Positions 894-42,624 of a stretch of DNA of 64,000 nt are shown here, in pieces. Origin of the DNA: Bacteroidia bacterium (lineage in GTDB: Bacteria; Bacteroidota; Bacteroidia; Cytophagales; Cyclobacteriaceae); the NCBI GenBank assembly GCA_030430675.1, contig JAUIKU010000001.1, positions 4,152 through 68,151 on the forward strand. The letters run 5' to 3'. The first letter of the stretch is position 1. Every line of letters begins with the position of its first letter. Below the pieces are notes generated by a model. That model saw nothing but the letters and a program-made list of their open reading frames with translations. It was not told where the DNA came from and searched no databases. The position numbers and the translations under genes are program-made.

Positions 894-1626
894 ATCGGTA
901 TCCTGGGACACTTTTGACCGGGCAACCCGTACCTATGAGCAGCCCGCAGATTGGTTAATACGCCAAGCCTTGAGAAAGCAGTTTAAGGCGGTGCAAGTCC
1001 ACCTGGACCAATCAGCCACGTTAGACCAGGCGTTGAACCTTCCTGACGGCATTATCGATGAGCAGCCTATGTTTAATGCCTATGAAAAGCTATACACCTT
1101 AGTTGGGCCTCCCTTTGCCAAGATGACCATTGAAGCTATTCAGGGTTCACAACAAAAGCAGTTTGATCACTTGACAGAGTACTTTAGAATATTCTCTCAG
1201 ACTATCGCAGGGGATAAGATCAAAAATATTGCTCTAAATACCTTGGATGCTATCCGTACTATGCTTACCACCATGCCAAACGAAATAATCGAAAAAGGCA
1301 TACCGGCAGTTGGTAGGGAGTTGCGCAGCCAATACGAGGTGTTCACCCGTTGGAAGTCTGAGCAGATAGCACGAACTGAATTAATCACAGCGGCCAACTC
1401 TGGGAGCTTAAAGGGAGCCAGGTCATTAGGTTTTGATATGGAAAAAGAATGGATTGCGGGAGGTGGCAATGTGCGGCCCTCACATGCGGAAGCTCACGGC
1501 CAAAGGGTACCTATGGCTAAGATGTTCAGGGTAGGAGCAGAGAGGGCAGATTTTCCGGGGGATCCAAGGTTAAGTGCGGCGGAAAGGATTAATTGCAAAT
1601 GCACCAGTGGATTTATTGTCTTATAA
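877..1626 (+). CDS. Phage head morphogenesis protein (SPP1 gp7 / Mu F-like minor head protein)
   Basis: It overlaps the portal stop and sits at the canonical position after portal. The C-terminal region (…GGNVRPSHAEAHGQRVPMAKMF…DPRLSAAERINCKC) resembles the gp7/F-like domain. Confidence 0.8.
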   Translation: MALLTKSVSWDTFDRATRTYEQPADWLIRQALRKQFKAVQVHLDQSATLDQALNLPDGIIDEQPMFNAYEKLYTLVGPPFAKMTIEAIQGSQQKQFDHLTEYFRIFSQTIAGDKIKNIALNTLDAIRTMLTTMPNEIIEKGIPAVGRELRSQYEVFTRWKSEQIARTELITAANSGSLKGARSLGFDMEKEWIAGGGNVRPSHAEAHGQRVPMAKMFRVGAERADFPGDPRLSAAERINCKCTSGFIVL

Positions 1627-1846
1627 ACCCCGGAGGATAACTAAAGTCAGGCAGAATAGTAAATATTCGAAATCCGTTGGAATCCTGAAATCCGGTGTCT
1701 TTGTACTTCCAAAGTGTTAAGTCTTTATCCTGGCCATCAACTTCAGGGCCTTCCTCGAGTGAGTTGTATTCGTCGCCATTGATGAACAAAACATGACCGT
1801 GCTCTGGCCCGCTAATTAGGATGCTATATTGTTTTTTCTCTACCAT
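1613..1846 (-). CDS. Small hypothetical protein (77 aa), fifth gene of the antisense micro-operon; paralog of 1982..2251
   Basis: It shares SGPEHG and WKYKDT…NGFRIFTILP with GGPKHG and EYKDT…EGHHIFAILP of the 89-aa ORF. Its ATG lies inside the end of the upstream 52-aa ORF. Confidence 0.55.
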   Translation of the reverse strand: MVEKKQYSILISGPEHGHVLFINGDEYNSLEEGPEVDGQDKDLTLWKYKDTGFQDSNGFRIFTILPDFSYPPGFIRQ

Positions 1847-1982
1847 TCAATTTCTCAATCCTATCCTTTATTTTCTTGCACATTCCGTAGTCCTCTTGCT
1901 TTTCGTAGATCACTAGTAGATCTTTTAGCTGTTTAAGGTCTAAGTGGTCTAGTGCGTTTATGTTGGCTTCAAGAGAGGGCAT
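1824..1982 (-). CDS. Small hypothetical protein (52 aa, below ORF-track cutoff), UVR-motif-like helical peptide
   Basis: Hand translation gives MPSLEANINALDHLDLKQLKDLLVIYEKQEDYGMCKKIKDRIEKLNGREKTI. Its ATG overlaps the upstream TAA as TAATG (1980-1984). Confidence 0.4.
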   Translation of the reverse strand: MPSLEANINALDHLDLKQLKDLLVIYEKQEDYGMCKKIKDRIEKLNGREKTI

Positions 1983-2251
1983 TAAGGCAATATAGCGAAA
2001 ATATGATGGCCCTCTGAAGTTTTCAGCCTTGTATCCTTATACTCGATGTAGTCAAGTTTATAATGCCTTGAAGGTGGGTTAGGATTAGCCATTGGAGGGC
2101 CATCCGGTTCTATGGGGAATTTTAGGTACGGGGTAAGCGTTTTGTACTTTTTGCCATGCTTAGGGCCACCGACCATTATAGCGAAAAAGAATTCCTCACC
2201 GACAACATCAACACTTTTAACGCGGACGTCAACCGTTTCTCGCTTTTTCAT
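1982..2251 (-). CDS. Small hypothetical protein (89 aa from ATG 2251; track lists a GTG start at 2257), paralog of 1613..1846
   Basis: The ATG at 2251-2249 overlaps the TGA of the upstream ORF (ATGA). Paralog motifs are shared with the 77-aa ORF. Confidence 0.55.
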   Translation of the reverse strand: MKKRETVDVRVKSVDVVGEEFFFAIMVGGPKHGKKYKTLTPYLKFPIEPDGPPMANPNPPSRHYKLDYIEYKDTRLKTSEGHHIFAILP

Positions 2252-2448
2252 AACCACCCTGGATTTTCATTCTTACCCTTATGCTGCTCGGCCTTCCTTC
2301 GCTCGTTCTGGAAGTAGTTGCTTAGCTGGCCATTTGCTTTCATCCAATTCATCTTCAGAATATCGTCAGTACTTCGCTGCTTGATTTTGGCTAAGAGCTT
2401 AATAGCATCCCTGACAGTGTATTCGTAGGGTTCGTTAGGGTTTTTCAT
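2248..2448 (-). CDS. Small hypothetical protein (66 aa), predicted helical
   Basis: ATGA overlaps occur on both sides (2445-2448 and 2248-2251). I recognise no family. Confidence 0.5.
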   Translation of the reverse strand: MKNPNEPYEYTVRDAIKLLAKIKQRSTDDILKMNWMKANGQLSNYFQNERRKAEQHKGKNENPGWL

Positions 2449-2612
2449 CTCAATAATTCTTCATAATCCTTACTGAAAATAATCCTTTCCATTAAAAACT
2501 TGGTGAGTTCAGAGTTAGTCTTTCCCAGACGCTTTTGCAAATGCTCAAAACGTTTCTTACTCTCGCCAAAAAGTCTAGTCCGGGGCTGGACGTAGTTGCG
2601 ATCTTCTCCCAT
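2445..2612 (-). CDS. Ribbon-helix-helix-like small DNA-binding protein (55 aa, below ORF-track cutoff), first gene of the antisense micro-operon
   Basis: Hand translation gives MGEDRNYVQPRTRLFGESKKRFEHLQKRLGKTNSELTKFLMERIIFSKDYEELLR. It shows a short N-terminal strand followed by two helices, as in CopG/Arc-type proteins. It lies directly downstream of the phased repeat array. Confidence 0.5.
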   Translation of the reverse strand: MGEDRNYVQPRTRLFGESKKRFEHLQKRLGKTNSELTKFLMERIIFSKDYEELLR

Positions 2613-2650
2613 CAATTTCACCCTGTTTCCACTACTAATTTAAAAAACTC

Positions 2651-2694
2651 TGACCACATATCGACCATAGGTTGACCAATATTTGACCGTTTAG
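2651..2694. promoter_or_regulatory. Operator-like array: four direct YGACCR repeats at exact 11-bp spacing
   Basis: TGACCA is at 2651, CGACCA at 2662, TGACCA at 2673 and TGACCG at 2684. The array lies in the divergent intergenic region between the RHH-led - strand operon and the prohead protease gene. Confidence 0.5.
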
Positions 2695-2736
2695 TTTAAA
2701 AATGTTTGGCATTCCGTACCATTGAGTTGTACGGTC

Positions 2737-3456
2737 ATGCTATACAAAGGATTTTATTGCAAAATTGAGGATCTGGACACCAAAGGAGCGAAGGGTGTCA
2801 TAGTAGCCTATGTTAATGCCTTTGGCAACAAAGACCTTGACGGTGACATATCTGCCCCGGGGAGTTTTGACAAAACCATCAAAGAGAACTTCCGCAAAAT
2901 CAAGCATTTCGTGGATCATAATGTGTGGTCAAATAAAGACCTGGTTGGTGTTCCTTTGGAGTTGGTTCCTGACAGCGTAGGGTTGAAGGTCACCAGCCAA
3001 CTTAATTTAGAAAAGCAGACCGCCAGGGACCTGTATTCTGACTACAAGCTATTCTTAGAGCTTGACCGAGACCTGGAGCATTCCATTGGTTACAATGTCA
3101 TTAAACGGGATGACAACGATCAGGCGGTCATTACCGAGTACCGTCTGCACGAATACTCAACTATTTCCTTTAGAGCAGCCAACCCTTTGAGTTTGGCCTT
3201 GGATGCTAAATCCAGTGGCGACCCTTTCACCCCTGCCGATATCCTGGACTGGATACACTACCTGGAGCAGGCTTTGAAGAAGGGTGATTTTACCGATAAG
3301 AAATTTTTACAGATAGAAACTTCCTTGGAAGGTCTCAACCAGACTTGGAAAACACTTGAAAAGCCGGGAGGGGATTCCCTTTCACTTTCTGAGCCGTTGC
3401 CAGACATCGACCTAGTAGGAAGCCTTGATAACATTTTTAAAAAACTAGCGAGTTAA
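2737..3456 (+). CDS. HK97-family prohead (maturation) protease
   Basis: The N-terminal signature is …GVIVAYVNAFGNKDLDGDISAPGSFDKTIKE…. It sits directly before the major capsid gene. I prefer ATG 2737 to the TTG at 2722 used by the track. Confidence 0.85.
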   Translation: MLYKGFYCKIEDLDTKGAKGVIVAYVNAFGNKDLDGDISAPGSFDKTIKENFRKIKHFVDHNVWSNKDLVGVPLELVPDSVGLKVTSQLNLEKQTARDLYSDYKLFLELDRDLEHSIGYNVIKRDDNDQAVITEYRLHEYSTISFRAANPLSLALDAKSSGDPFTPADILDWIHYLEQALKKGDFTDKKFLQIETSLEGLNQTWKTLEKPGGDSLSLSEPLPDIDLVGSLDNIFKKLAS

Positions 3457-3460
3457 GACA

Positions 3461-4786
3461 ATGGCAAAGACATTAGAAGAAGTTCATCAGGACGTGTTGA
3501 CGGTCGGCAAGAAATTGCAAGACCTTGGTCCTGAAATTGATAAGAAGATTGATCTGATTAACGATCAGATCCAGAAAGCGGGTACCGAGTGGAAGAAGGA
3601 AGTTAAAGGCGATCTAAAAGAAGCCCTCGACCTTTACAGCAAGCTATCCGGCGATAAGGAAAAAGGGGAAAAGGCTTGGCACGAATTAGCCACCGACCAA
3701 CTGGCAGAGCTTGAAAAAAGTATCCAGCAAATCCAGGAATGGAAACCCAATAACCCTGCTCCCGAGACCAATAAGTTTCACCAGAAATTTATGGAGGTCA
3801 CCGAGAACGGGGAACGCCTGAAGAAAATGAAAGGTGAAGACGGCAACCGGGGCCAGAAGGATGAGGTTGTTATGGAGATTGAGCGCAAGGCGGTAGTAAC
3901 CGAGGCCGGAGCTTTGACAGGGGATGTAATTGTTCATGGTCGCGCCCCTGGGTTCAAGGTGAAGCCTGAAGAAGCCAATCACATACGCCAAATCATGCGA
4001 ACTGGTTTTACTGCATCAAACCGTTGGTGGCATGTAGCGGAAACCGGATACACCAATAACACCGCAGCTATCGCGGAAGGTGCCGCTTTCCCTCAGAACG
4101 ACTTCGACCTGACTCAGGTAGAGACTGTGAACAAAAAGCTGGCCGCTCACAAGAAGCTGTCCAACGAGATTTTGCAGGATTTACCAGGTGTGATGACTTA
4201 CGCCCAGGGTCGATTGATGACCAAAATGTTCCTTTTAGAAGACAATGAGGTTCTTTTGGCTGATGGTACTGGTCAGCATGTGGATTCTATCAACAACCAG
4301 GCTACCGCTTACGGTCCTGGAGCGTTGTTCCAGAACCTTTACGGCACAGGGGCAACCCGAATTGATGTATTGGGGACTGCTATCAACCAGGCCAGGGTGA
4401 CCACATCGGAAGGTTTGTACAATCCTAACGTGATCATTGTCCATCCAAGTGATGTGACTGTTGCTCAGTCTATCAAGCTGACTGACGATGATTACCTGTT
4501 AAGGGCTGCTTTGCTTACCGATGCTCCATTGCGAGTGAAGGGAGTGGGAACCTTTGAAACTACCGTACAGACTGCGGGAACCTACACTGTGGGCGATTTC
4601 AATCAAGGTGCTGAGTTGATAGACTCAGAAACCATGACCATTGAGATTTCCAACTCTGACCAGGATGACTTCATCAAGGATTTGGTAACCATCCGAATCA
4701 AAGAGCGAATCATACTTCCTGTGTACTTCACCGGTGCATTCATCAGCGGAACTTTTGCAGCTGGCATCACTTATTTGAACGCGTAA
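3461..4786 (+). CDS. Major capsid protein, HK97 fold, with N-terminal coiled-coil delta/scaffold domain
   Basis: At 441 aa it follows the protease. The first ~130 residues are charged and helical, followed by a capsid-like body (…NVIIVHPSDVTVAQSIKLTDDDYLL…). Confidence 0.85.
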   Translation: MAKTLEEVHQDVLTVGKKLQDLGPEIDKKIDLINDQIQKAGTEWKKEVKGDLKEALDLYSKLSGDKEKGEKAWHELATDQLAELEKSIQQIQEWKPNNPAPETNKFHQKFMEVTENGERLKKMKGEDGNRGQKDEVVMEIERKAVVTEAGALTGDVIVHGRAPGFKVKPEEANHIRQIMRTGFTASNRWWHVAETGYTNNTAAIAEGAAFPQNDFDLTQVETVNKKLAAHKKLSNEILQDLPGVMTYAQGRLMTKMFLLEDNEVLLADGTGQHVDSINNQATAYGPGALFQNLYGTGATRIDVLGTAINQARVTTSEGLYNPNVIIVHPSDVTVAQSIKLTDDDYLLRAALLTDAPLRVKGVGTFETTVQTAGTYTVGDFNQGAELIDSETMTIEISNSDQDDFIKDLVTIRIKERIILPVYFTGAFISGTFAAGITYLNA

Positions 4787-41565: not shown

Positions 41566-42624
41566 ATGAATGCCAAGATCAATTACCGTACGGTAAATTT
41601 TACCACCAACCTGTTTCTTTTCTGCCTGATTGTATTCATTCTGGTAATTGCCAAGAACTTCCTGGTACCCATAGCCTGGGCCCTGCTGATCAGCCTGGCA
41701 TCACTAAGATTCCTGGAACGCATGCATGAAAAGCTCAAAATTAAATGGGGGTTGCTGATATTAATTCACTTGTTGTTGTTGATGATCATTATTCTGGGTG
41801 TGTTAACTTTTCTCTTTGCAGAAGTTAAGTTGATTATTGAGAATTCACCGGAGATTGACCAAAAGATCCAATTGATCGACCAGAATTTCAGAGGCTGGCT
41901 GACCGGGATGGGGGTCGATACCCATGAGATTTACAGCGTTCGGTCCTTGGCCAAGAGATTGTCCGACTTTTCTCAATACCTGGTAGAGTTCGTGGGCAAT
42001 GTGGGTCATGTTTTCGGAGATATCGTGTTGAGCCTTATCTATTCTTTCTTTTTTCTCTTCTACAAGGATGTGTTGGAGCGATTCTTTATAATGAAGTATC
42101 ACGAAGGCAGCAGGTTGAAAAAAATAAAGGGCATAGCCAATAACTCCCTGTCCATCATAAGCGACTATCTTTTTGGAACATTAATTATGACAGTATTGAT
42201 GGGTGTCTTGATTTATGTAATGCTGCTGGCGTTGGGCATCCGGTATGCACTATTCTGGGCGGTGTTTGCCGCGGTACTCAATTTGATTCCCTACATCGGT
42301 AACGCTATTGCATTAATCGCACTGGTGGCTTATGCCCTTTTGACAAAAGACGGTCTGTGGTATCCGGTATTGGCAGCCGGTGCCCTGTTTTTTGCAAATA
42401 CCATACAGGAGAATATACTGAGACCACTGGTAGTGGGAGATAAGCTCAGCCTCAATGCACTGACAGTTTTTATTTCGGTGATTGCAGGAGGCATGTTGTG
42501 GGGCGTTACTGGAATGATTGTTTTCATACCTATTGCCGGAATAATCAAGATTGTCCTGGAAAGCAGGGAGCAGACCAGACCGTATTCCTTGTTTTTTGGT
42601 GAGCCTCAAATACCTGATGAATAA
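41566..42624 (+). CDS. AI-2E family (PerM-like) transporter
   Basis: It is a multi-TM protein of 352 aa with family-typical segments (…NFLVPIAWALLISL…, …LNLIPYIGN…). Confidence 0.75.
   Translation: MNAKINYRTVNFTTNLFLFCLIVFILVIAKNFLVPIAWALLISLASLRFLERMHEKLKIKWGLLILIHLLLLMIIILGVLTFLFAEVKLIIENSPEIDQKIQLIDQNFRGWLTGMGVDTHEIYSVRSLAKRLSDFSQYLVEFVGNVGHVFGDIVLSLIYSFFFLFYKDVLERFFIMKYHEGSRLKKIKGIANNSLSIISDYLFGTLIMTVLMGVLIYVMLLALGIRYALFWAVFAAVLNLIPYIGNAIALIALVAYALLTKDGLWYPVLAAGALFFANTIQENILRPLVVGDKLSLNALTVFISVIAGGMLWGVTGMIVFIPIAGIIKIVLESREQTRPYSLFFGEPQIPDE

Follow-up and report, generated by a model that had tools for sequence, protein, structure and literature searches.

Introduction

Several systems are known in which a small protein, or a response regulator, reads short and regularly spaced boxes in DNA. 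In the immI region of phage P22, Arc is the first gene of an accessory operon that is embedded in the late region of the genome. Direct repeats with an 11-bp periodicity are familiar as pho boxes, which are read by winged-helix response regulators. Four CopG dimers bind cooperatively along a single face of the DNA, at four sites that follow one another at intervals of one helical turn (PMC2724298), and ParG places one dimer on each tetramer box, with AT-rich spacers between the boxes (PMC3130281). For R1 parC, direct repeats that flank the promoter are described in work cited in PMC5016525. Among phage accessory genes, the ribbon-helix-helix (RHH) protein Aca14 represses phage accessory operons and also neighbouring operons (PMC13551039).

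Here we compare with these systems a locus in a prophage of a Bacteroidia bacterium (Cyclobacteriaceae), contained in a 64,000-nucleotide stretch of genomic DNA that we refer to as the window. A preliminary description of the window had pointed to four direct repeats of the form YGACCR between a small leftward gene, ORF1, and a rightward prohead protease gene, and had read them as a plausible operator for the ORF1 product, which it labelled an RHH protein. We find that the array is genuine, non-random and unique in the genome, and that it lies beside a small basic ORF. The features discussed below are collected in Table 1.

Table 1. Features of the array region and of the flanking genes; positions are those of the window.
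Feature	Position	Strand	Remarks
Four-box YGACCR array, exact 11-bp period	2651..2689	+	Cores kept; 5-bp AT-rich spacers dissimilar
TAAATTAG, best leftward (ORF1) -7 candidate	2635..2642	-	One mismatch to TAnnTTTG; 8 nt from box 1
Rightward promoter candidates TAGTTTAA (2692-2699) and AATGTTTG (2701-2708)	2692..2708	+	
Two TTTAAA palindromes	2639-2644 and 2695-2700		Symmetric about the array centre, ~2670
Hairpin, core CCGTAC/GTACGG (2714-2734)	2707..2742	+	Stem extended onto protease AUG; modest stability
Inverted fifth copy, ACGGTCA (complement of TGACCGT)	2731..2737	-	Abuts protease start codon
Prohead serine protease (Peptidase_S78)	2737..3456	+	Divergent from ORF1
ORF1, 55 aa, basic	2445..2612	-	First gene of five-gene antisense cassette; candidate binder
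Four packed small genes after ORF1 (66, 89-91, 52 and 77 aa)	1613..2448	-	
Third cassette gene	1982-2251	-	Paralogue of the fifth
Fifth cassette gene	1613-1846	-	Paralogue of the third

Results

A prophage head module interrupted by an antisense cassette

The order of genes along the contig is that of a phage head module: a partial integrase, the small and large terminase subunits, a portal protein and a Mu F-like protein are followed by the five small minus-strand ORFs (2612 to 1613), and beyond these lie the S78 protease, an HK97-type capsid protein and tail genes. The integrase is represented by the C-terminus of a tyrosine integrase (contig C220:1-354), located 4.1 kb upstream of window position 1 and 1.4 kb upstream of the small terminase gene, on the same strand as that gene. 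No lysogeny or replication module lies between the two. The protease ATG at 2737 is backed by an alignment with eight homologues, several of which begin with M-x-Y-K at that point.

None of the five cassette proteins has a family match in Pfam, PHROGs, NCBIfam or PADLOC. Two of them, the third and the fifth, are paralogues (E = 3e-7) and have the motifs G-P-x-H-G and Y-K-D-T...I-F-x-I-L-P in common, and a homologue search with the 89-aa cassette protein returned only the protein itself. Close relatives of the phage were absent, at both the DNA and the protein level, from 100 related genomes and the phage collection, and viral and genome contigs, searched with the protease and the capsid protein, likewise had none.

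An array of direct repeats with an exact 11-bp period

The four repeats are confirmed at the positions first reported: TGACCA at 2651-2656, CGACCA at 2662-2667, TGACCA at 2673-2678 and TGACCG at 2684-2689 on the plus strand, with start-to-start spacings of 11, 11 and 11 bp. On that strand the array reads TCTGACCACAT ATCGACCATAG GTTGACCAATA TTTGACCGTTT. It occupies a 124-bp gap between the ORF1 ATG (2612, minus strand) and the protease ATG. The first box is 39 nt from the ORF1 ATG, as had been stated, and the array ends 47 nt before the protease ATG rather than the approximately 45 nt given earlier. In addition to the GACC core, the flanking Y and R positions are conserved in all of the boxes, and each hexamer is partly two-fold symmetric, in its outer positions only (YG..CR). 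The three inter-box spacers (CATAT, TAGGT and ATATT) are all different, which argues that the array is not a recent tandem duplication; Tandem Repeats Finder reported nothing in the region. The combination of intact cores with diverged, AT-rich spacers looks like the product of constraint on a binding site, rather than of recent duplication.

Even when up to two mismatches are tolerated, the window contains a single occurrence of the full array pattern, which did not arise in any of 100 shuffles; the array is also the only one in the whole 4.96-Mb genome with at least three copies of GACC at period 11. Among 737 other intergenic stretches of 70-160 bp in the same genome, no 4-mer recurs four times with a period of 10 or 11 bp, and threefold recurrence is seen in only 0.8%. 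When the 124-bp spacer was shuffled, four in-phase copies of any 4-mer arose in 5 of 5000 trials (p ~0.001), and the phasing signal in the real spacer is present at period 11 and absent at 9, 10 and 12. As a look-elsewhere control, any 4-mer repeated four times at period 11 was counted throughout the genome, which gave five cases. The GACC 4-mer count by itself is thus only moderately rare, and it is the flanking Y and R positions together with the intergenic location that make the array exceptional.

These figures bear on the possibility that the array has no function at all, being either a chance occurrence or a decaying repeat in fast-evolving accessory DNA. That reading can draw on the five genome-wide cases, on the fact that the motif was defined after it had been seen, and on the lack of boxes at the only homologous locus (L123, described below). 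It is harder to square with the absence of such a repeat from all 737 other intergenic regions and with the shuffling result, with the conservation of the Y and R flanks, with cores that stayed intact while the spacers diverged, and with the presence of an independent phased array in the same slot of another phage (L124, below). We consider a functionless array quite improbable.

No intergenic pair of YGACCR hexamers spaced at 11 bp occurs anywhere in the genome outside this array. This makes it unlikely that the array serves a host regulon or a late activator acting across the phage; the lone genomic target favours a local regulator with a single site. A regulon of a host response regulator of the OmpR/PhoB type was rejected on this ground, as all of the intergenic 11-bp YGACCR pairs belong to one array. 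An explanation at the level of RNA structure was also rejected, because the region folds no better than its shuffles (z = -1.06) and has no Rfam match. Elsewhere in the window, three YGACCR hexamers lie at 41856-41905, with spacings of 21 and 23 bp, inside a 352-aa ORF; as a second array this trio was judged to be due to chance, given its spacings and its location within a gene.

The ORF1 protein

The ORF1 sequence, NYVQPRTRLFG-ESKKRFEHLQKRLG-KTNSELTKFLMERIIF, would fit a strand, a helix A, a G-x-T-x-S-E turn and a helix B. It agrees with the RHH turn pattern G-x-[ST]-x-[SN]-E preceded by a short alternating strand (RTRLFG...LGKTNSELTKFL), and the succession of RTRLF, a helix, LGKTNSEL and a second helix is RHH-like. 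A local BLASTP comparison with Arc (GRSVNSEIYQRVM) gives a match of 11 residues at the equivalent position (E = 0.072), and the two proteins have an N-S-E-[IL] stretch in common at the same position. The turn motif, G-K-T-N-S-E-L, is not exclusive to RHH proteins and would also fit a helix-turn-helix (HTH).

A Pfam scan of ORF1 up to E = 1 returned only TBCA (0.035) and no RHH profile, the RHH profile PF01402 had no match in the whole genome, and phmmer against the PDB returned no RHH entry. Alignments of ORF1 and its L123 homologue by hhalign against Arc, and against the small proteins of loci L121, L124 and L133, gave nothing. AlphaFold monomers, predicted from ORF1 alone and with one homologue, have helices at residues 10-29, 33-45 and 48-54; residues 1-5 and 8-14 have pLDDT values below 50, and no strand is predicted in either run. 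The two Foldseek matches of the model in the PDB are MatP and nMazE6, both RHH-containing proteins, at a weak E of ~7, and a Foldseek comparison with viral structures was uninformative. The earlier RHH label accordingly finds no support from Pfam, the PDB or hhalign, nor a strand in the two AlphaFold runs. As an unproven assignment, it depends on the sequence pattern and on the 11-residue Arc match with its E of 0.072.

ORF1 is an orphan. Searches of 5.8 billion proteins and of 1.84 billion representatives recovered only ORF1 itself, a search of viral contigs with ORF1 alone found nothing, and the same was true for the ORF1 and L123 alignment against metagenome and viral contigs. The sole sequence homologue is the C-terminal half of the L123 protein, with 38% identity over 37 residues (E = 9e-8).

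Promoter candidates and a hairpin around the array

Genes in this genome use the Bacteroidota -7 box: TAnnTTTG has a 3.1-fold enrichment at positions -50 to -11, and the exact motif is absent from both strands of the 124-bp spacer. For a leftward promoter that would serve ORF1, TAAATTAG is the best candidate, although a weak one: its motif class is enriched 2.2-2.7x upstream of genes, barely above the 1.5-2.2x of AT-rich controls. In the rightward direction, neither the TAGTTTAA nor the AATGTTTG motif class is clearly enriched upstream of this genome's genes. The latter had been put forward as a near-consensus -7 box at 2700-2707; it is in fact located at 2701-2708, and the class AAnnTTTG to which it belongs has an enrichment of 0.96x (0.35x for the exact word), compared with the 3.1-fold of TAnnTTTG. 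We therefore rejected AATGTTTG as a supported promoter element. An overlap of the array with core promoter elements is plausible.

The CCGTAC/GTACGG inverted repeat reported earlier is real, with arms at 2714-2719 and 2729-2734, and the stem can be extended at the RNA level such that UGGCAU pairs with AUGCUA, which holds the protease start codon (-13.6 kcal/mol, z = -1.87). On transcripts with a nearby start, such a hairpin could hold back protease translation. The inverted fifth copy of the box at the protease start is 48 bp from box 4 and out of phase, and alone it is not significant.

The same slot in related phages

Protease relatives exist at 40-50% identity, and ten were fetched, which allowed sixteen loci to be compared. 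Where the Mu F-like gene meets the protease, the fetched relatives have a hypervariable slot. In L121 it holds an RHH-looking 55-aa gene and two more genes, all antisense (L122, a shorter contig, is arranged alike). In L123 it holds a lone antisense gene of 88 aa at the same position as ORF1. In L124, a prophage of Nibribacter koreensis (Bacteroidota), an RHH-looking 58-aa gene is followed by a further 11 small antisense genes and one sense-strand gene. The slot of L133 and L134 contains a lone, RHH-looking antisense gene of 64 aa with a textbook TTVTLPK strand motif, and that of L135 and L136 a lone antisense HTH gene of 60 aa (Sigma70_r4_2, E = 2.9e-5). Antisense GIY-YIG genes, which are homing-endonuclease-like, occupy the slot in L125-L128. 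No antisense gene is present in L129-L132, L129 having one small sense-strand gene, and in Cellulophaga phage phi18:1 (L120) two antisense genes adjoin a palindrome. The second gene of L121 weakly resembles the cassette paralogues of the window (FVVFEGGVLHGK; hhalign E = 0.05).

Thus in six loci, representing four distinct phages, the first antisense gene divergent from the protease encodes a small RHH-looking or HTH protein. Of the indirect evidence for a regulatory role of ORF1, this recurrence is the strongest. No relatives of the L124 and L133 regulators were found.

With the protease start corrected, the spacer of L123 is likewise 124 bp long. It contains no GACC boxes and no phased repeats, and its alignment with the window spacer reveals no meaningful conservation. 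The only homologous locus therefore does not carry the repeat of the window, and the conservation check proposed in the preliminary description fails at this distance, which weakens the operator hypothesis without killing it, considering that the proteins are only 38% identical. In L124, the region between the RHH-looking gene and the prohead protease (L124:3891-4000) contains TACC cores at 3904, 3915, 3970 and 3992, all in phase modulo 11 (p ~0.001, at period 11 only). The first two of these boxes are adjacent copies of GTACCT, which lie 13 nt from the start codon of the regulator and inside an ATTGAG...CTCAAT inverted repeat. In L133, AATGTAA occurs twice at 10 bp, 8 nt from the regulator start codon; the background rate of this type of 7-mer repeat is 2.2%. 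Helically phased direct repeats thus recur beside these small genes, with cores that differ from locus to locus.

Two of the relatives have GC-rich hairpins followed by T-runs, resembling terminators, just past the upstream head gene (L133:2700-2735 and L129:2005-2040). Their placement suggests that the protease and capsid genes of L133 and L129 are transcribed as a separate unit.

In a competing explanation, the array binds a protein other than ORF1 (for example another cassette product, a phage late-gene activator or a winged-helix protein of the OmpR/PhoB type) and serves mainly to activate or time the rightward protease-capsid unit. In L123, L133 and L135 the slot insert is a small regulator gene by itself, so cargo is not the sole target there and a promoter on the protease side becomes a plausible one. 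The terminator-like hairpins of L133 and L129, situated before the protease region, imply a separate protease promoter; direct hexamer repeats at an 11-bp period also mark the sites of winged-helix response regulators; and the RHH fold of ORF1 is unproven. Against these points, in-phase intergenic YGACCR pairs are confined to this one array in the genome and prophage, and hence there is no regulon, searches of the cassette revealed no other DNA-binding domain, and the spacer offers no good rightward -7 box. We judge a binder other than ORF1, acting mainly on the protease side, to be unlikely.

Phased arrays in other phages

Arrays with the same period are not confined to the window. More than 117 viral contigs from IMG/VR (L003-L119) contain 4-7 YGACCA boxes at an exact 11-bp period. 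Examples are L008:12850-13572, L045:1305-2015 and L025:283-1158, and the arrays are typically followed by repeats of the AAGAATGAAAAG type. The IMG/VR arrays resemble origin iterons of the lambda-O style, embedded in the coding sequence of the initiator.

One might accordingly read the boxes of the window as replication-origin iterons, or else as a packaging (pac) recognition site. The pattern is the same as in the IMG/VR contigs, where 90 of the 117 fetched contigs have the array within an ORF of 100 aa or more (mostly ~200-290 aa); 29 of 30 array-bearing ORFs that were compared link into one family, and the members of that family that were tested are DnaD-like or O-like replication initiators. 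AT-rich TTTAAA tracts also flank the window array. On the other hand, a tblastn search of the whole genome with 30 array-bearing initiator proteins had no match, the window array is intergenic, within the head module, with the small terminase gene 4.5 kb away, and it lacks the repeats of the AAGAATGAAAAG type found after the initiator iterons. Origin iterons were rejected as an explanation for the window array because the genome contains no member of the initiator family and the array is intergenic, and the reading as a whole, pac site included, seems to us very improbable indeed.

An unrelated group of phages (L038:1042-1080, L058, L073 and L113:4855-4893) carries, in a divergent spacer, four TGACCAAA boxes spaced at 11 bp. 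These boxes adjoin a consensus TTGACA-N17-TATAAT promoter that contains a ACGCTAATATTAGCGT palindrome.

Discussion

The best reading of the array is that it constitutes a cooperative operator, in the style of CopG, for the adjacent small protein, and we put the case for this reading at about evenly balanced. Its components differ in strength. That the array is bound by some sequence-specific protein is probable; that the binder is ORF1 could go either way. The operator proposal of the preliminary description therefore stands in so far as the divergent region does contain an exceptional array, unique in the genome as the target of a local regulator would be, and it falls short with regard to the RHH fold of ORF1. 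Its further suggestion, that the same site might gate read-through into the late genes, is conjecture.

In the mechanism that we envisage, the boxes would form a cooperative array for a small DNA-binding protein that the element itself encodes, most probably the 55-aa ORF1 product. One dimer might occupy each box, with all of the dimers on one face of the helix, as CopG does. With the boxes occupied, leftward transcription of the five-gene antisense cassette would be repressed at its promoter, amounting to negative autoregulation by the first gene of the operon, a role that a single genomic target fits. Because the array fills nearly the whole of the space between the two genes, occupancy may also influence transcription into the protease and capsid genes. 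For this scheme we infer the binding to the array, the role of ORF1 as an RHH binder, the sign of the regulation and the positions of the promoters.

A broader scenario can also be considered, in which the gap upstream of the protease in this Bacteroidota siphophage group is a dedicated control node that gates the protease-capsid unit itself; we regard this as a distinctly speculative idea. It would involve a fast-diversifying, divergent RHH-like or HTH protein acting on phased NACC-type boxes that span the gap, a component that we find similarly doubtful. The node would further act as a second layer of silencing or timing, apart from the main immunity repressor, with cargo having been added later, and this part too appears improbable. 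The lone regulators of L123, L133 and L135, along with the L124 boxes that reach the protease start codon, are compatible with such a scenario.

To our knowledge, phage gene regulation has been little studied in Bacteroidota. If the CopG-style reading were confirmed, an orphan regulator of a Bacteroidota prophage would gain a defined operator, and such a protein-operator pair would open a way into the variable accessory slot inside the head module. The mechanism itself would be of a known kind, since a small repressor on phased repeats is already textbook biology. The more interesting part is the comparative pattern, that is, the presence of small divergent regulators beside the protease, sometimes without cargo, which raises the question of whether transcription of the head genes is separately gated in these phages.

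Finally, we consider how the locus compares with the described systems. By analogy, CopG is the closest mechanistic precedent. CopG (RepA), which acts at Pcr of pMV158, is similarly tiny (45 versus 55 aa) and, as is proposed for ORF1, comes from the first gene of the operon that it represses; its operator also presents four sites on a single DNA face, at steps of one helical turn. However, the CopG operator has a 13-bp pseudo-symmetric centre with weaker outer sites, whereas the window boxes are all direct repeats. The two proteins have no sequence similarity, the RHH fold of ORF1 is putative, and the context is a plasmid copy-control operon for CopG but a prophage head module in the window.

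In its setting, P22 Arc would be the closest known system. Arc, like the ORF1 product, is small, a 53-aa repressor, and its half-sites are bound by two dimers approximately one helical turn apart. The Arc operator is nevertheless a 21-bp inverted arrangement for two dimers, in contrast to the four direct repeats of the window. The partition systems ParG/parH-OF and ParR/parC resemble the window in having short core boxes with AT-rich spacers and in tolerating direct orientation (PMC3130281). They differ in that the period of ParG is 8 bp rather than 11, in that arrays of the ParG/ParR type comprise 8-20 boxes rather than four, and in that these systems include a gene for a partner partition NTPase, whereas the window cassette has no match to the ParA or ParM families.

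The Aca systems are like the scheme proposed here, in that a small autorepressor controls the strong promoter of a phage accessory cassette. Aca genes, however, lie at the end of the operon and their products bind inverted repeats over the -10 element, while ORF1 comes first and is accompanied by direct repeats. The window cassette is moreover antisense to the head genes, and it contains no Acr or Aca homologue according to Pfam, PHROG, NCBIfam and PADLOC. The iterons of phage DnaD-like and O-like initiators have the same DNA pattern as the window array, with YGACCA cores, an 11-bp period and 4-7 copies, but they are embedded in the gene of the initiator itself, AAGAAT-type repeats come after them, and the genome of the window lacks such an initiator. 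The locus is unlike all of the systems compared, with four purely direct repeats beside the gene of an orphan protein, placed antisense in a Bacteroidota head module.
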